DNA of 64,000 nucleotides from Nitrospinales bacterium (GTDB taxonomy: Bacteria > Nitrospinota_A > UBA7883 > JACRGQ01): assembly GCA_023248535.1 (NCBI GenBank), contig JAHFEJ010000003.1, positions 29,403 through 93,402 on the forward strand, read 5' to 3'. Below the pieces are notes generated by a model. That model made no database searches and was not told the DNA's origin. It saw only the letters and a program-made list of their open reading frames with translations. Of this stretch, positions 5,459 through 54,081 are shown one piece after another (the stretch's first letter is position 1; each line of letters begins with the position of its first letter). Both the position numbers and the translations under genes were made by a program.

Positions 5459-7042
5459 GTGTTAAGGAAGGAAGGGGATATGGGGTCATCTGGAAAATGC
5501 CGGATGAAACACGTTGTATTGCGAAGTTTGGCCGCCTATGGCTTAGTTTTGATTTTCCTTCCGGGTTGTAGCGGGGGCAAGGGTGTTAATGACGCCAATG
5601 GGGCGGCCTTGGTCAACTTCCTTATCCCTGACGCATCTCAAATGCTTTACACCGGCAGCAGCTATATCTTCATGGCCCAGGCTCAAGGAGCATTAAACGC
5701 GACGGTCAAAGATCAATCGCAAACCACCTTGGGCTGTAGTTATAATCCCGCCACAGGACTTATCAGTTGCGCATATGTTCCATCCGTTGCCGGGACTCTT
5801 ACGCTAACGCTCACGGCGGCCTTGCCAGATGGAACAACCCAAACGGCCTCAAGGCAATTCACGGTGTCCACGCCAACGGGAATCTACCCTTTGGGCGACA
5901 GGTTTATGTATGGCTTCTACTCGGTAAGTACGAACAGGTTTGCGGCGGTTCAAGCATTAAGCTATGTGAACGCAAGCCATGAATACTGCCCTGCATGCAC
6001 CGCCAACGGCAGGCTGAATTATATCAATGCGGCAAAAGCGTCTGGACTAAGCGCATTCGCCTCGATGGATTATGATATAAACGGTTCCGCTTCCACCCCG
6101 GCCACTAATAGCTGCGTTACAGCCCCCTCGGTCTGCACAAGCGCCATAGATGCCATGGCGCCGAACGCGAATTTTCTGATTTGGGACATCCCCGAGGAAA
6201 TGGATTACCTCATTTCTTCGCAGATGAACGCGATGACAACCATCGCGGCATACGCGCATGCCCACGATCCCATGAAACGTCCCGTATACATGTATATCGC
6301 GTCTAATTATACAGCCAAGGACATCCAGAACTATGTCCCTTACCTCGACATCATTGGAGCGGGCGCTTACGGAATTGACAATAGCCAGCCATCGGCATGG
6401 GTGAGGTGGAGGGCGGAGGCCGAAGTCAATGCGATCATCGCCGCAGGCTACACCACGCAACAGAAAACCCCGATTCTGGTCACCGAAGCTTTCTGTTCAC
6501 CCCGCGGTTGCACCGCTGGAGCCAATTTCATTCACGACACCTTTACCGGACTGGCGGCGGGATTGAAGGGCATTATGGTCTATGGCTACGAGCAAATGCT
6601 TTCAACGGCCGCGGATACTCCAGCGGCGGCCGCCAAAACAATAAACTTGGTCATGGGTACCGAGGCGTTGGGCGAGTGGGTGGTAAAGGGAAAGAGCAAA
6701 GGCGATTTGACGGTAGTCATCACGAGTGGATCGCTCACGACACCGTTTTTTACTCCCGACCATGGCGAACCAACCCAGAATTTTCCATCCGTCCGCGCGG
6801 CGGCTTTTGATTGGGCGGGGGTGCGATTGGTGATTGCGGTCAATTCGTCGCCTTTGCCGGTCACGGCCATCCTTTCCGGTTTGCCAACCGGGGTGTCTTT
6901 TGCAAACGTCGTAAACGAATCAAGATACGCCATGATTACAGGCGGCGCTTTGACGGATTCGTTCGATGGGCTTGGAGTTCATATTTACAAGGTGCCAATG
7001 GTGGGCCAACAAAGCGATGGACACTGGATTTCACTCCAATAG
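5459..7042 (+). CDS. Lipoprotein, putative clan GH-A (TIM-barrel) glycoside hydrolase. Encoded on a lower-GC insert.
   Basis: Lipobox LIFLPGC. Candidate acid/base motif IWDIPEE and nucleophile motif ILVTEAF lie about 120 aa apart, as in GH5-like enzymes. The functional assignment is tentative. Confidence 0.45.
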   Translation: MLRKEGDMGSSGKCRMKHVVLRSLAAYGLVLIFLPGCSGGKGVNDANGAALVNFLIPDASQMLYTGSSYIFMAQAQGALNATVKDQSQTTLGCSYNPATGLISCAYVPSVAGTLTLTLTAALPDGTTQTASRQFTVSTPTGIYPLGDRFMYGFYSVSTNRFAAVQALSYVNASHEYCPACTANGRLNYINAAKASGLSAFASMDYDINGSASTPATNSCVTAPSVCTSAIDAMAPNANFLIWDIPEEMDYLISSQMNAMTTIAAYAHAHDPMKRPVYMYIASNYTAKDIQNYVPYLDIIGAGAYGIDNSQPSAWVRWRAEAEVNAIIAAGYTTQQKTPILVTEAFCSPRGCTAGANFIHDTFTGLAAGLKGIMVYGYEQMLSTAADTPAAAAKTINLVMGTEALGEWVVKGKSKGDLTVVITSGSLTTPFFTPDHGEPTQNFPSVRAAAFDWAGVRLVIAVNSSPLPVTAILSGLPTGVSFANVVNESRYAMITGGALTDSFDGLGVHIYKVPMVGQQSDGHWISLQ

Positions 7043-7593: not shown

Positions 7594-8409
7594 TTACCAG
7601 AACCGTTCGAGGTGTACCTGGCCCGGCTCCTTTTTCTTGTGCTCCCTGAACCCTTCGGCTGACAGCAGCTGCGACATCTCTTCCGCCATCGCCGGGGCGC
7701 CGCAAAGAAAGATGTGCGTGTTCTCCGGTTTCAACGGAGCGCCCCATCGCTGCTCAAGAACTTTTTTCCGCCACACGTCCTGCACATAGCCGCCATGGCC
7801 GGTCCATCCTTCCTTCTCGTCGCCGGGACGGCTGATGACGGGGAGGTAGGCGAAGTTTTTAAAATAATACGCCAGCGTGGAAAGCTCGGCGCGGTATCCC
7901 AGGTCCCACGAATGGCGCGCGCCATGAATGACGGCAAACCGCCGGTTGGGCCGTTCCTTGAATTCCGTGCGGATCATGCTCATGTACGGCGCGATGCCGG
8001 TGCCGGTGGCCACCATGACAATGTTCGCCTGTTCGGGAACCTCCTTCAGCGTGAACATCCCCTTGAACTTCTCTCCCAGAAAAACAGCGTCCCCCTCCTT
8101 GAGCGCGAAAACCCGGGGAGTAAGCGATCCGCTGCGGATGAGGGTGATGTACAGTTCGACGTACTCTTTTTCCTTTGACGACGAGGCGATGGAGTAGGCC
8201 CGCTTGATAAGCTTGTCGGCGGGCGGCGCCTCCGTTTCGGGATCGGAAAGTTCGGCGCGTTTGGCGGAACCGGGAAGGGCGAGCACGGCGTACTGGCCCG
8301 CTTCAAAATCCGGCAGCGTCCATCCATTGGGCCGGACGGTTAAAATTATCAATCCGGGCGCGACTTCAACCCGCTTCAGGATAACGGCATTCAACTGGTT
8401 TTCTTCCAT
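7594..8409 (-). CDS. fpr: Ferredoxin--NADP(+) reductase.
   Basis: FAD-binding motif RAYSIAS and NADP-binding motif MVATGTGIAP. Length about 270 aa. Confidence 0.85.
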   Translation of the reverse strand: MEENQLNAVILKRVEVAPGLIILTVRPNGWTLPDFEAGQYAVLALPGSAKRAELSDPETEAPPADKLIKRAYSIASSSKEKEYVELYITLIRSGSLTPRVFALKEGDAVFLGEKFKGMFTLKEVPEQANIVMVATGTGIAPYMSMIRTEFKERPNRRFAVIHGARHSWDLGYRAELSTLAYYFKNFAYLPVISRPGDEKEGWTGHGGYVQDVWRKKVLEQRWGAPLKPENTHIFLCGAPAMAEEMSQLLSAEGFREHKKKEPGQVHLERFW

Positions 8410-8590
8410 GACGGTGTCCTCCGTTAATTGTCCGCCACCATTATATTTGAAAACCGCTTCATCTCCGATTTATTCGGGTGAAGTGGGATGATGGCTAAAC
8501 CCTCATGTTACACACACCGGCGGCTAAGAATACGTCATCCATCTTGAGCCTATCGGCGCAGGCCGGAGCCGACTGGCGCGAACCATTATT

Positions 8591-9316
8591 TCACGAGGTA
8601 AATTCGTCCAAAGTACCGTCACATTCAATGTCAAGTGCGTATTGATATTTATAAAAGGGCAATCCATAAAAAAAAGAATTTTCGCTTGCTACAAGTAAAG
8701 CAACAATATTCCCAAAAGTATCCATTATTGGAGCCCCACTGCATCCCCAATAATAATCCGGGCCATTATACTGAGCATTGCATTTAAAAATGTAATAGTC
8801 CTTATCTTCCTTGATGTAGTTCAGATCAATCTCAGTGTGCAGTTCAGCATTTTTTACACTTCCATCCAATTTGTTATTTCGTAGTCCTGCGAACCCATAT
8901 TTGTAATCTAACATAGGTTTTATATTGCAATTAAGGGGGGTGATCTTTCTTTGCGTTTCTTTCAAAATGCATCCTTCTTTGGATATCTCCTGATAGAAAG
9001 CTTGAACATCTTCAGCTATTATTTTAAACGTAAAGTCAACATCATCAACCTTCTTTTCATCCAGTTGAATTATTTTCAAATAGGTCATATTGCCCAAGGG
9101 AATAGTTAATGTCCCCCTTCCAGGAACAAATTTACTTTGAATAGACCATATTTCATTGGGCCTCAAAGCATGGAAAACAGAAAGAATCAGATTCTTTCCT
9201 TTATAAGACACCAAGCAACCTGACGCATAAGCAATTGGCAAATTTTCCGAATCAAGTTGAATTAGAGGAACGCTAGCATTTATTAGTATTGATCTCCATT
9301 CTATATTTTTGTCCAT
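8591..9316 (-). CDS. Hypothetical protein on an AT-rich islet. Possible chymotrypsin-fold serine peptidase.
   Basis: Codon usage and GC are far below the surrounding genes. GCSGAPI resembles the GDSGGP catalytic-serine motif. A candidate catalytic His lies in LSVFHAL. Confidence 0.5.
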   Translation of the reverse strand: MDKNIEWRSILINASVPLIQLDSENLPIAYASGCLVSYKGKNLILSVFHALRPNEIWSIQSKFVPGRGTLTIPLGNMTYLKIIQLDEKKVDDVDFTFKIIAEDVQAFYQEISKEGCILKETQRKITPLNCNIKPMLDYKYGFAGLRNNKLDGSVKNAELHTEIDLNYIKEDKDYYIFKCNAQYNGPDYYWGCSGAPIMDTFGNIVALLVASENSFFYGLPFYKYQYALDIECDGTLDEFTS

Positions 9317-9436
9317 ATACCCTTTCGGTTTAAAGCAATTTTTTTGTAATCATCTAAAGCTTAAATTAGCACATCCAGAAAATTATGGGAAATGGCTAAA
9401 ACACGTCAAAAGGCCACTGTTTTCACCCAGTGTCGA

Positions 9437-9870
9437 TGTTTGTCTTTGTTGGCGGGCACACTCACAATGGACTCGGCCACACTCGCGGCAACATCACGTT
9501 GCCGCTCGCGCGGCCCCCGGCGTTTTCCCGCCAAACATCCTGTTTGGCGTCACTCCCTTACCGGTCGCGCACGAAACCGCCGTTCGAGTCCTGGTGGCCG
9601 GCGCAATTTGGGATATGGGATGGAGCGAACTTGTTTGTTGGACGTGGTCAGAGGAAAAATGGTGGGCCCACACCCGAAGGACTCGGCCACTCTCGGGCTC
9701 GCATCACGCTCGCCCTCCATCGGCCCCGACTCGCTTCCTTGTCCCGCATCCATGCGGGCCAACACTCGCTTATCGCTCGTGTGCGGAAGCTCGCTTTCGA
9801 GTCCTGGGGGCCAGCGTAAAAGCGTGATTGGGGATGTAGCGGTCTTGATTGTGGGACATGGTCAGAGGAA
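9437..9870. repeat. Two degenerate tandem units of about 215 bp, each ending in gtggtcagaggaaaaatggtgggcccac. They carry direct and inverted fragments of the tRNA-Met 3' end.
   Basis: tggtgggcccac...ggactcgg occurs at 9657, and the authentic tRNA 3' end is at 9874. Inverted copies ttcgagtcctggtgg are at 9583 and 9797. Confidence 0.5.
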
Positions 9871-9873
9871 AAA

Positions 9874-9952
9874 TGGTGGGCCCACCAGGACTCGAACCTG
9901 GGACAGCCCGGTTATGAGCCGGGAGCTCTAACCAACTGAGCTATAGGCCCAC
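9874..9952 (-). tRNA. tRNA-Met (anticodon CAU), CCA-encoded.
   Basis: Reverse complement reads GTGGGCCTATAGCTCAGTTGGTTAGAGCTCCCGGCTCATAACCGGG...GGTTCGAGTCCTGGTGGGCCCACCA, a cloverleaf with a CAT anticodon. Confidence 0.9.
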
Positions 9953-9996
9953 ACAATAAAAAAGAGCCGCGCGCCGTTGGCTGGCGCGGCGGCTCT
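9953..9996 (-). terminator. Intrinsic terminator between rpoD and tRNA-Met.
   Basis: GC-rich hairpin agagccgcgcgcc/ggcgcggcggctct, followed on the minus strand by TTTTTTAT. Confidence 0.5.
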
Positions 9997-10002
9997 TGAC
10001 GT

Positions 10003-11721
<1,719 letters not shown>

Positions 11722-11801
11722 ATCAAATTGGATCCTTATTAAATAAGGGTTCTCGATGAAAAATAAGAGATTAACGTACCATAAAATTCAGGCTCAAACA
11801 A

Positions 11802-13529
11802 TCATTCTTTCCGCTCCAGATTGTTAAACGCCTGGCGTTTCTTATCGGCAATATCCTCTTTTCGCATACGTTCGCCATCACGTTTTTTGAGGAAGTCATT
11901 GATAATTTGACTCTTTCTTCCTTCGTCCTCGTCACGTGTCTCCATTATTAGAGCCCGCATATTCCCTTTAAGTTCCAGATTGGGGCAACTTTCTATCAAT
12001 TCGCCGGTGGAGGTTCCCCCTTTTATCGCAAGTTCCGCCTGAAAATGCTCCAGCATCCGCCGGTATTCGGGGGTATGTAAATCTTCCGCTTTGAGGGACG
12101 CCAGCGGTCCGGCCAGCGTTTCCGGGAAATTCAGGATGATCTGGACGATCCATTTTTCCATCGGCGAGGCTGGGCGCGGCGGACGGCGGGCCGGTGGGGG
12201 CGTAGCAGGGGCGCCCTGGGCCGCTTGCGCTTGTGGCGGGGTGTGGCGGGGGGTAGTGCTCCTGATCTGTCCGCTGATGGCGGAGGCCGGTATACCGGTC
12301 CGCTCGGAGAGAAGCTCCACATAGCTGGCCCGCTCTATCGGGCCGGCAACGCGGGAAAGCTCCGGCAATAATGAGCGGATGGCGTCCGCTTTTCCCTCGG
12401 GCGTTGCGACATCGAATTTGCGGCAGGCCTGTTCTATCAGGTAGGTCATATAGGGGCGCGCGTTTTTCACGATCTCTTCAAACGCCGCCGGGCCTCCCTG
12501 CTTTATCAGGTCGTCGGGATCCACCCCGCCGGGGAGCATCGCCACGCTGGGGCGGATTTCGAGCTCGGCGGCCACTTCGGTGGCGCGTGCGGCGGCGCGG
12601 CGGCCGGCTTCGTCGCCGTCAAAGATCATGACCAGGTTGTGGGTGTACCGCTTGAGCGCGCGGCACTGCTGCGCCGTGAATGCGGTGCCGGAGGTGGCGG
12701 CTACATTTTCAAAGCCGCCCTGGTGCAGCGCGATGGCATCCATGTACCCTTCCACGATCATTATCCGGTTGGCGGCGCGGGCCTTGGCGGCGGCGAAGTT
12801 GAGCGCGTAGAGCACGCGCGATTTGTTGTAGGCCGGCGTTTCGGGGGAATTAAGGTATTTCGGCCCCTTTTCATCGTCCGCCAGCGCCCGTCCGCCAAAG
12901 GCGATCACCCGGTTATGCTCGTCCATTATCGGGAAAATGAGACGGTTGCGGAACCGGTCGATCGGGTTCCCGGCGGAAGAGAGCTTGGTCAGCCCCGCTT
13001 TGCCGATTTCATTGAGGGTGATTTTTTTGTCGACGAGGTGGCGGTAGAGCGAATCCCACGCGTCCGGGGCGTAGCCGATGCGGAATTTTTCAACCGTCTC
13101 AGCGGCCAGCGCCCGTTTTTTAATGTATTCGGCCACGAACGGGGGGGCGTTCTTGAGCTGCTGTTGGTAAAACTCGGCGGCCATTTTGTTGATGTTGTAT
13201 ATGTACGAGTTGTCTTCCCCCTCCTTGTCGCGCGGCAGGGGGATGCCGGCGCGCGCGGCCAGCAACGCCAGCGCATCGGGAAAGCTCATGTTTTCGTGCT
13301 TCATCACGAAGGTGATAACGTTTCCCCCTTCGCCGCAGCCGAAGCAGTGCCATATCTGGCGCGCCGGGTTGACATTGAACGAGGGGCTTTTTTCGGTGTG
13401 AAACGGGCAGCGCGCGGTGAAATTCGCCCCGCTTTTCTTAAGGGGAAGGTAGGAGGAAACGACATCGACGATATCGGCCGCTTCGCGGATGCGGTCGATC
13501 AACTCCTGCGGATACAGACCCGCCATCAT
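11802..13529 (-). CDS. dnaG: DNA primase DnaG.
   Basis: CHC2 zinc finger CPFHTEKSPSFNVNPARQIWHCFGCG, a TOPRIM domain, and operon context. Confidence 0.95.
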   Translation of the reverse strand: MMAGLYPQELIDRIREAADIVDVVSSYLPLKKSGANFTARCPFHTEKSPSFNVNPARQIWHCFGCGEGGNVITFVMKHENMSFPDALALLAARAGIPLPRDKEGEDNSYIYNINKMAAEFYQQQLKNAPPFVAEYIKKRALAAETVEKFRIGYAPDAWDSLYRHLVDKKITLNEIGKAGLTKLSSAGNPIDRFRNRLIFPIMDEHNRVIAFGGRALADDEKGPKYLNSPETPAYNKSRVLYALNFAAAKARAANRIMIVEGYMDAIALHQGGFENVAATSGTAFTAQQCRALKRYTHNLVMIFDGDEAGRRAAARATEVAAELEIRPSVAMLPGGVDPDDLIKQGGPAAFEEIVKNARPYMTYLIEQACRKFDVATPEGKADAIRSLLPELSRVAGPIERASYVELLSERTGIPASAISGQIRSTTPRHTPPQAQAAQGAPATPPPARRPPRPASPMEKWIVQIILNFPETLAGPLASLKAEDLHTPEYRRMLEHFQAELAIKGGTSTGELIESCPNLELKGNMRALIMETRDEDEGRKSQIINDFLKKRDGERMRKEDIADKKRQAFNNLERKE

Positions 13530-53700: not shown

Positions 53701-53787
53701 GCCGGAGTGGCGAAATTGGTAGACGCAGGGGACTCAAAATCCCCCGTAGGCGACTATGTGCCGGTTCGAGTCCGGCCTCCGGCACCA
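53701..53787 (+). tRNA. tRNA-Leu (anticodon CAA), class II with a long variable arm, CCA-encoded.
   Basis: GCCGGAGTGGCGAAATTGGTAGACGCAGGGGACTCAAAATCCCC...GGTTCGAGTCCGGCCTCCGGCACCA. Confidence 0.9.
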
Positions 53788-53952
53788 CTATTCCAAGGAT
53801 CATGAACCGGGCTTGAAGCGAGGCTCCGGCGCGACCGAAGAGGGAGCGCAACCGGACAGGGACGTCCGGTTAGGAGGCGAGCCGGCCAGGACGAGCCGAA
53901 GCGTGACGCGCAGGCGAGTGATGGCGAGTCCGGCCTCCGGCACCACTATTCC
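53768..53952. repeat. Perfect 27-bp direct repeat of the tRNA-Leu 3' end (gagtccggcctccggcaccactattcc), at 53768-53794 and 53926-53952. att-like.
   Basis: Exact repeat read directly from the sequence. A 131-bp GC-rich spacer lies between the copies. Confidence 0.6.
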
Positions 53953-54081
53953 TCTCGGCACCATTAAAAGTGGTTCGATAGGCTCATTCGAAAAAATGGG
54001 TGGAGGCCACTTCCGCTACAGGTCGGGAAATAATTCGGCAGTTTCCCAATCTTGTTTCCCAAAAAAGCGGAAAGCAGTAAT

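Follow-up and report, generated by a model that had tools for sequence, protein, structure and literature searches.

Tandem tRNA-linked repeats, most likely encoding a structured RNA, beside a probably independently acquired protease gene in a Nitrospinota-related bacterium

Directly downstream of a tRNA-Met gene in a 64,000-nucleotide stretch of DNA from an uncultured Nitrospinales bacterium (contig JAHFEJ010000003.1, positions 29,403 to 93,402; this whole stretch is hereafter called the window), two tandem units each end in a copy of the 3′ end of that tRNA and are followed by an AT-rich open reading frame (ORF) that encodes a protease-like protein. Taking the evidence together, we consider it probable that the units are tRNA-linked repeats constituting a structured element, most likely an RNA, and that the ORF is a separate, horizontally acquired islet of a single gene. 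This differs from the original prediction, made from the sequence alone, in which the repeats were the signature of repeated site-specific integration and decay at a tRNA attachment site (attB), with the ORF as the surviving gene. The genomes nearest to the one studied here are metagenome-assembled genomes labelled Nitrospinales, and the best named matches to its RpoD protein come from Nitrospinae/Nitrospinota. The features on which the argument is built are the following.

9874–9950, minus strand: tRNA-Met (anticodon CAT), host gene of the repeat array, with the CCA encoded (ARAGORN; Rfam tRNA model, 69.6 bits)
9660–9873 (214 nt), minus strand: proximal tRNA-linked unit, Met2, with its spacer at 9811–9873 and the structured core plus tRNA 3′-end copy at 9660–9810
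9450–9659 (210 nt), minus strand: distal tRNA-linked unit, Met1, with its spacer at 9598–9659 and the core plus degenerate tRNA 3′-end copy at 9450–9597
9796–9810, minus strand: 5′ strand of the closing helix P1 of Met2 (…CCCCCAGGACTCGAA), inverted repeat I5, RNAalifold helix 1
9582–9597, minus strand: 5′ strand of P1 of Met1, inverted repeat I1, 100% over 16 nt
53701–53787, plus strand: tRNA-Leu (anticodon CAA), the only other tRNA of the window
53788–53954, plus strand: tRNA-linked unit after tRNA-Leu (124.5 bits at 53803–53945 with covariance model R1 and 94 bits with R2, both described below)

The tRNA gene had been predicted on the minus strand at 9874–9952; ARAGORN and Rfam both find it there, with its end at 9950. 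It is called Met from its CAT anticodon, and may alternatively be a lysidine-modified tRNA-Ile2. The two tandem units, put at about 215 bp in the original prediction, were recovered by self-comparison with a start-to-start spacing of 210–214 nt and with identities of 72–88% over ungapped segments (repeat families D1, D2, and D4); Tandem Repeats Finder does not detect them, because the copies are too diverged. Read on the tRNA strand, Met1 and Met2 align along their full length. Both begin with TTTTTCCTCTGACCA right after CCA and end in ...GGCCGAGTCC...GCCC(A/G)CCA, the terminus of Met2 being the tRNA 3′-end copy ...CGAGTCCTTCGGGTGTGGGCCCACCA and that of Met1 the degenerate copy ...CGAGTCCATTGTGAGTGTGCCCGCCA (…GTGTGCCCGCCA). 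The 12-mer CCAGGACTCGAA occurs three times in the 64 kb against 0.25 expected (0 of 100 shuffles). As had been noticed, each unit not only re-creates the tRNA 3′ end but also holds an inverted copy of it. That of Met1, at 9582–9597, is a perfect reverse complement (16/16 nt) of tRNA positions 9882–9897 in the T-arm/acceptor segment. That of Met2, at 9796–9810, matches in 14 of 15 nt; it is antisense to the T-loop, the T-stem, and the start of the acceptor 3′ strand, and its partner is CGAGTCCT at the 3′ end of the unit. The spacers of the two units are 87% identical, and two internal hairpins are almost wholly different in sequence between Met1 and Met2, with the hairpin form kept.

Units of this kind are also found at other tRNAs. 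Both tRNAs of the window (2/2) carry them, in two copies at Met and one at Leu, the latter with an exact copy, 28 nt long, of the 3′ end of tRNA-Leu plus 7 nt of trailer as its terminus (CGAGTCCGGCCTCCGGCACCACTATTCC). When metagenomes were scanned with a motif representing the conserved 3′ part of the core, 21 matches were returned, of which 19 lie within genes and are due to chance and two are genuine: one after tRNA-Gly(CCC) in contig L040 and one after tRNA-Arg(TCT) in contig L051, both with the same architecture as in the window. All five copies are on the same strand as their tRNA, begin 0 nt after its CCA (or trailer), and share a three-part layout, in which a variable spacer is followed by a conserved core of ~130 nt and then by the host tRNA 3′ end, copied from T-loop C56 to CCA, amounting to ~165–215 nt overall. 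Identity to the host tRNA begins at C56 in 5/5 copies, the tRNA reading GGTT-CGA(G/A)TCC and the unit GGC-CGA(G/A)TCC, where the hyphen marks the boundary. The exact run from the host tRNA is 27 nt in Met2 (3′ end plus trailer), 28 in Leu, 21 in Gly, and 19 in Arg, and is degenerate in Met1. Between these repeats the core has a GC content of 65–67%, and the copies at the Met, Leu, Gly, and Arg tRNAs share 75% core identity; one hairpin, termed P6 below, is identical in Met1 and in the Arg copy, which comes from another metagenome.

Two covariance models were built from the five copies, R1 covering the whole unit and R2 the core only. Met2 scores 139 bits with R1 and 115 bits with R2 (9686–9798), and Met1 scores 120.9 and 97.8 bits (9476–9585). 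Searches with the two models of ~470 kb and ~194 kb, comprising the window and the fetched loci, recovered only the known tRNA-linked copies and no copy away from a tRNA. In viral contigs, which were scanned with two patterns, a single chance match and no unit was found, and there was no unit match in plasmids.

The units also show strong covariation. RNAalifold, applied to the five copies, predicts six helices with 44 pairs, 24 of which show compensatory double changes. Of the cells assigned to pairs, 93.5% are indeed paired, compared with 76.9% in column shuffles and 31–39% in controls in which the partner strand was slid, and for each of five measures none of 500 shuffles reached the observed value. 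The closing helix, P1, is formed between the internal segment antisense to the host tRNA T-loop/T-stem and the first 8–9 nt of the tRNA-derived copy. P2 encloses P3, which has the tandem G·A motif C-GA-GC…GC-GA-G, and P4, a hairpin with a GGA-containing loop, while P5 and P6 make up an arm with a GUGAU cap, so that the core from P2 to P6 is predicted to be a three-way junction. P4 and P6 are nearly fully rewritten between copies with pairing retained. The acceptor 3′ strand and CCA are left unpaired in the predicted fold as a tail of ~17–20 nt. Both P1 and this tail vary in step with the host tRNA, as the strands of P1 illustrate.

P1 with host tRNA-Met: 5′ strand AGGACUCG, 3′ strand CGAGUCCU
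P1 with host tRNA-Gly: 5′ strand GGGAUUCG, 3′ strand CGAAUCCC
P1 with host tRNA-Arg: 5′ strand GGGACUCG, 3′ strand CGAGUCCC
P1 with host tRNA-Leu: 5′ strand CCGGGCUUG, 3′ strand CGAGUCCGG (two G·U pairs)

Across the whole structure there are 14 G·U cells and 2 A·C cells, so that it is the tRNA-sense strand on which structural constraint acts. This bias points to units that would act as RNA transcribed in the direction of the tRNA or, less likely, as the same strand in the form of single-stranded DNA. Single-sequence folding z-scores are positive on the plus strand.

These observations bear directly on the original prediction, according to which the units would be scars of repeated integration and decay and the protease gene the last surviving cargo. 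There is a genuine resemblance to the attL and attR sites of tRNA-integrating islands and prophages, in that the locus has direct repeats of the tRNA 3′ part in tRNA orientation, is variable among relatives (the contigs of two of them break at tRNA-Met, as described below), and adjoins a gene of foreign composition. Identity to the tRNA moreover begins in the T-loop, which, in work by Williams from 2002, is said to be a crossover sublocation for tRNA-targeting tyrosine integrases. In contrast to attL and attR, however, the repeats here bracket a conserved structured core and not cargo, and a GC-rich core conserved at four tRNAs, with compensatory changes and a G·U bias, is not expected of decaying scars. 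The Gly unit has ordinary genes around it, with neither foreign DNA nor a shift in composition; nothing foreign was seen in the Leu flank as read, and the Arg contig is too short to judge. At tRNA-Met itself, we found no integrase or integrase remnant among the ORFs of 8.4–9.9 kb, a set that has the protease ORF as its sole convincing member and in which the minor overlapping GC-rich ORFs across the repeats were not run against hidden Markov model (HMM) libraries. The AT-rich islet is external to the last repeat, and on the far side of the islet there is no further tRNA-Met 3′-end fragment with up to three mismatches that would bound it, a 2-mismatch match at 6999–7011 being within chance expectation. 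It is also implausible that a single integrase lineage was retargeted to the tRNAs of four amino acids (Met, Leu, Gly, and Arg) with core identity at 75%. We thus regard integration scars as a very unlikely explanation for a conserved, covarying family, and this part of the original prediction is not upheld.

Another reading is that the repeats are protein-coding, or a meaningless GC-rich duplication. Long plus-strand ORFs are indeed present, encoding 172–179 aa across 9309–9931, and an automatic gene call has been made over the repeats in a Logan contig (L001:1495-2040). However, the substitutions between copies are compensatory in stems and not codon-patterned, the ORF surroundings of the Leu, Gly, and Arg copies are different, and long spurious ORFs are to be expected at 60–67% GC. 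The plus-strand ORFs across the units and the tRNA are almost certainly spurious, and we give this reading as a whole hardly any credence.

The closest known counterparts of the units are the tRNA-linked repeats (TLRs) of Escherichia coli, for which PMC8144298 cites Egan & Landy (1978) as the first description and Rudd (1999) as the catalogue. According to that source, there are 22 such elements at ten loci, with one to five elements each, in tRNA or rRNA operons, and the 18–19 bp at the 3′ end of each are an identical copy of the 3′ end of the directly preceding gene. No function is known for them other than the binding of CsrA/Hfq by the three rRNA-linked members, and its authors suggest that RNases are guided by the repeated 3′ end to process the element just as they do the mature RNA (PMC8144298). 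In the tyrT-tyrV locus, which we fetched for comparison, the Rfam model RtT (RF00391) marks three units. The RtT consensus has a closing helix GGGGAAGGAU/AUCCUUCCCC, formed by an internal antisense segment and the tRNA-Tyr-derived copy, and a CCACCACCA tail; the closing helix of the argV-Q TLR, GGGAUGAU/AUCCUCCC, likewise matches tRNA-Arg.

The likeness to the units described here is extensive. Both kinds of element lie directly downstream of a tRNA gene (in the case of TLRs also rRNA) on the same strand, either singly or as several copies in tandem, at several loci with different tRNAs, and both have 3′ ends identical to that of the upstream tRNA, over 18–19 bp in E. coli and 19–28 nt here. 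In both, a P1-type closing helix made of the antisense segment and the tRNA copy varies with the host tRNA and leaves a CCA-terminated tail. Both also have an internal multi-hairpin junction, in which the tyrT unit hairpin CUC-GA-GC-GCCA-GC-GA-GAG resembles P3. They differ in that the tRNA copy begins at T-loop C56 here compared with ~58–60 in E. coli, that the units here have the additional P5/P6 arm with its GUGAU loop, and that their host is a Nitrospinota-related uncultured bacterium and not an enterobacterium. The units thus have every architectural feature of TLRs yet no detectable homology to them, and are a new TLR-type element, not a member of the RtT family.

Several other kinds of element were considered and set aside. 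ARAGORN is negative for tmRNA and permuted tmRNA, and an Rfam search of 8000–10200 at E ≤ 10 returned only the tRNA and chance matches, with no tmRNA or ribozyme among them. YrlA/Y-RNA-like elements were dismissed, since P1 sequesters the T-loop and leaves the units without a tRNA-like domain, and integron attC sites were likewise put aside. For the omega-RNA of IS200/IS605 and the bridge RNA of IS110, corresponding genes were not identified in the vicinity, and the source of the guide-like tail is the adjacent tRNA, not flanking DNA. A primer-binding site of retroviral type was rejected since the antisense segment stops short of the tRNA CCA terminus.

On the distal side of the array lies the AT-rich ORF, whose limits and surroundings are as follows.

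8591–9316, minus strand: AT-rich protease ORF of 726 bp, 241 aa plus stop
8480–9400, no strand assigned: low-GC, lineage-specific islet of one gene and short flanks, delimited by composition, by the limits of homology, and by absence in the relative L058

The original description of this ORF as trypsin-like, with a GxSGxP-type motif, is borne out. The catalytic residues are H49 (9170–9172), D94 (9035–9037), and S193 (8738–8740), the last within G191-C-S193-G-A-P196 (GCSGAP), and the three residues, as well as the ASGC and GCSGAP motifs, are invariant in 41 family members. An AlphaFold2 model (pLDDT 92.4, pTM 0.90) has a chymotrypsin fold, for which Foldseek finds HtrA1, DegS, FAM111A, and trypsins at E values of 3e-7 and weaker with a probability of 1.00, together with viral chymotrypsin-like proteases. 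As modelled, the ORF product is a standalone serine protease of the PA clan (chymotrypsin fold), and we predict it to be cytoplasmic. It shares with HtrA/DegS and with the protease-type effector LmuA a double beta-barrel, the His-Asp-Ser order, and the GxSGxP serine motif, but unlike these it is a single-domain protein of ~240 aa with no PDZ domain, no obvious signal peptide, and no conserved partner gene. In addition, the LPxxHPGH motif, which immediately precedes the catalytic Ser in the family and is conserved there to at least 90%, is missing from it: residues 179–185 (~8762–8782) read CNAQYNG in its place, and the protein is therefore a divergent member of its family.

Homologues of the protease are numerous and almost all nameless. 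In a set of 5.8 billion proteins we found 44, of ~240 aa and 24–39% identity, nearly all unannotated, and a profile search extended the family to 772 representatives at 50% identity, nearly all again of ~240 aa and almost all single-domain. NCBIfam yielded no families, PHROGs gave two insignificant matches (E 0.083 and 0.18), and there was no protein match in phages. The PADLOC model for LmuA (PDLC03855) matches the window protein at E 0.0022 and 31 of the 41 family members, at best with E 2e-7; this match is limited to the N-terminal 170 of 425 profile positions, that is, to the protease part, and the Lamassu partners LmuB (SMC-like) and LmuC are found neither here nor at six homologue loci. 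At these six loci, the protease gene has a lower GC content than its surroundings in 6/6 cases and no conserved neighbour gene. The neighbours at other protease loci include an integrase, genes of a type IV secretion system (T4SS), and NACHT, HEPN, HNH, and NUDIX/helicase genes, while of two distant homologues on plasmids one lies near a RES toxin gene and one near a replication gene. In Thioalkalivibrio (L003:8001-12392), a homologue is found in a block of small unannotated genes ending at tRNA-Phe, which may be a tRNA-associated island. The family thus behaves like a mobile single-gene module. The original suggestion of an abortive-infection-type protease is possible, the pointers being the defence- or mobile-flavoured neighbours elsewhere and the weak-to-moderate LmuA match, and the protein could plausibly be a conflict or defence effector.

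That the ORF is foreign to its locus, as had been proposed, is supported by several lines of evidence. Its GC content is 0.33–0.385 in 200-nt windows (~35% vs ~60%), compared with 0.57–0.62 in the flanking genes and ~0.61 in the units, the family is sporadic, and a relative lacks the gene next to the same tRNA. In this relative (L058/L059, RpoD 91% identical), an identical tRNA-Met is followed by an unrelated spacer of ~200 nt and a convergent CHASE2-cyclase gene, with neither a unit nor the protease gene. Two matches of 13 and 11 nt in L058 were suggestive of a unit remnant, but the alignment was unconvincing. On the other side, similarity to the loci of the ferredoxin-NADP reductase (FNR) gene in relatives stops at 8457–8478, beyond which the neighbours differ, consistent with a foreign ORF, and the segment at ~8480–9400 is specific to this genome among the relatives compared. 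As judged from synteny, the downstream side of tRNA-Met appears to be a breakpoint, a variable spot in the lineage, and this would be why the units adjoin the protease islet.

Three further relatives were inspected at these places. In the two closest species representatives, found via DnaG, the contigs stop before or inside tRNA-Met (L007:13562, L008:13598) and are uninformative, although repeats or strain heterogeneity after tRNA-Met there too would be expected to cause such breaks. In a more distant one (L009:3645-3854, DnaG 60% identical), the rpoD-tRNA-Met arrangement is the same and is followed at once by AT-rich sequence, with no unit. Finally, L055:4065-4113 (FNR 91% identical) has a stretch of 49 nt that is 82% identical to the Met1 spacer and ends in GGCCACCA followed by a T-rich trailer; it lies ~2 kb upstream of the FNR gene of that genome, oriented like it and close to a transposase, and could be the remnant of a unit with a deleted core.

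The proximity of the two elements raises the question of whether the units and the protease might form one system, for example with the units as RNA antitoxin or regulator of a toxic protease. The repeats, a weak terminator, a promoter-like site, and the protease gene do lie on one strand within 1.3 kb, in a manner reminiscent of ToxI/ToxN-type (type III) loci, where tandem RNA-like repeats precede the gene for a potentially toxic enzyme on the same strand. But unlike the parts of ToxI/ToxN, the protease and the units are not found together at other loci. The units go with tRNAs and occur without the protease at tRNA-Leu, tRNA-Gly, and tRNA-Arg, whereas ten protease-homologue loci have no unit, and only one of them has a tRNA within ~4 kb; protease and units are therefore independent. 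The two parts also differ by ~25–30 GC points. A joint system is, in our estimation, extremely improbable.

For units that are TLR-type structured elements, we propose the following sequence of events. Each unit would be co-transcribed with its tRNA and excised as a discrete RNA by the tRNA 3′-maturation machinery, because it ends in the tRNA's own 3′-end sequence. At tRNA-Met, expression of the tRNA and units may occur via read-through or processing of the rpsU-dnaG-rpoD transcript. The two-copy array would have arisen by unequal recombination between the tRNA 3′-end direct repeats, an event in which the spacer would be duplicated along with the core, and the protease gene, which has a sigma-70-like promoter match of its own, would have been acquired independently of the units.

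A number of observations weigh against this proposal or parts of it. The sample consists of five copies at four loci, two of them from one array; the covariation is strong but the sample small. Moreover, single-sequence folding energies are unremarkable on the minus strand (z −1.0 and −1.7). With regard to TLRs, the Rfam RtT model has no match to the units (8000–10200, E ≤ 10); conversely, R1 gives only 6–9.5 bits on the E. coli RtT units, equal to its score on tRNA T-arms, and R2 gives 8.2 bits on the E. coli TLRs, within noise. Transcription raises its own difficulties: the terminator of rpoD abuts tRNA-Met in the window, its hairpin ending ~20 nt before the tRNA, and a promoter search found no promoter-like site for the tRNA between the two (9951–9988). 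On the Arg contig (L051:1052-1095), a strong terminator-like hairpin (AAAAGAAAACGG…CCGTTTTCTTTT) lies between tRNA-Arg and the unit, and co-transcription with the tRNA may accordingly not be valid for every copy. The absence of the units from a close relative is as compatible with an element that is mobile or dispensable as it is with a functional RNA. As for the protease, the profile check proposed along with the original prediction had a divided outcome: the PA-clan fold is supported by structure, but Pfam Trypsin_2 stays below its threshold (14 bits vs a cut-off of 27.6, E 0.089) and matches 0 of 41 family members at E ≤ 0.01.

The foremost alternative sees the units as mobile but non-autonomous elements homing to tRNA 3′ ends and mobilised in trans by a recombinase, reverse transcriptase, or nuclease. 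Pairing of the P1 5′ strand would recognise the target, insertion would rebuild the tRNA 3′ end, and the structure would be conserved for mobility. The same core is found behind four unrelated tRNAs with the antisense strand of P1 and the 3′ tail re-matched to each, and this reading therefore stays alive. It would also account for the fact that close relatives with an identical tRNA differ in having or lacking units, for the mosaic relationships among copies (P6 is that of Arg in Met1, yet the Met1 and Met2 spacers are 87% identical), and for the spacer fragment in the transposase-bearing variable region of L055. On the other hand, no mobilising gene was identified beside any copy, where ORFs were listed near Met and Gly and only the protease ORF was HMM-searched. 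Only tRNA-linked copies were seen and no donor or free form, the viral contigs and plasmids again giving no matches; a circle of 165–215 bp would be a poor recombination substrate; and unequal recombination together with ordinary selection on an RNA could explain the arrays and the variability. On balance, we consider mobility of this kind unlikely.

Our preferred reading, a structured element that is most likely RNA, has several implications. It places a TLR-type element in a phylum far from the enterobacteria and provides a second, independent family for comparative analysis, with a concrete structural model consisting of P1–P6 and the tRNA-derived tail. The TLR-like design would be either ancient and widespread or have arisen more than once, and appears to be under selection in both cases. 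Genome annotation should treat units of this kind neither as ORFs nor as att sites in decay. The protease family is by itself of modest interest, but a reasonable candidate for defence screening.

A bolder generalisation, which we hold to be doubtful, is that the units, and by extension the E. coli TLRs, are widespread small non-autonomous elements that home programmably to tRNA 3′ ends. What keeps it in play is that the cores are mosaic, that they follow four unrelated tRNAs, each time with P1 and tail matched to the host, and that they vary between close relatives. If it were true, the P1 5′ strand and the 3′ tail would specify the target tRNA, insertion would regenerate the tRNA 3′ end, and the three-way-junction core would serve as a scaffold for a trans-acting enzyme, be it a recombinase, a reverse transcriptase, or a nuclease.

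The remaining features of the locus complete its layout. On the minus strand the order is dnaG, rpoD, the terminator hairpin, tRNA(CAT), the two tandem units, a weak hairpin with a T-run, a promoter-like site, the 726-bp ORF, and the FNR gene.

11802–13529, minus strand: dnaG
10003–11721, minus strand: rpoD
9970–9988, minus strand: terminator hairpin of rpoD
9408–9432, minus strand: putative weak terminator-like hairpin after the last unit, CACTG-GGTGAAAA-CAGTG followed by GCCTTTTG, read by eye and under the T-run threshold of the scanner
9382–9409, minus strand: sigma-70-like promoter match, TTGACG-16-CATAAT, 10/12, ~65 nt upstream of the protease start codon, a consensus match only
7594–8409, minus strand: FNR gene

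Apart from the islet, a dip to low GC content (0.375–0.43) is seen at 11600–11950, at the 3′ end of dnaG and the dnaG-rpoD junction, amid genes of 57–70% GC.

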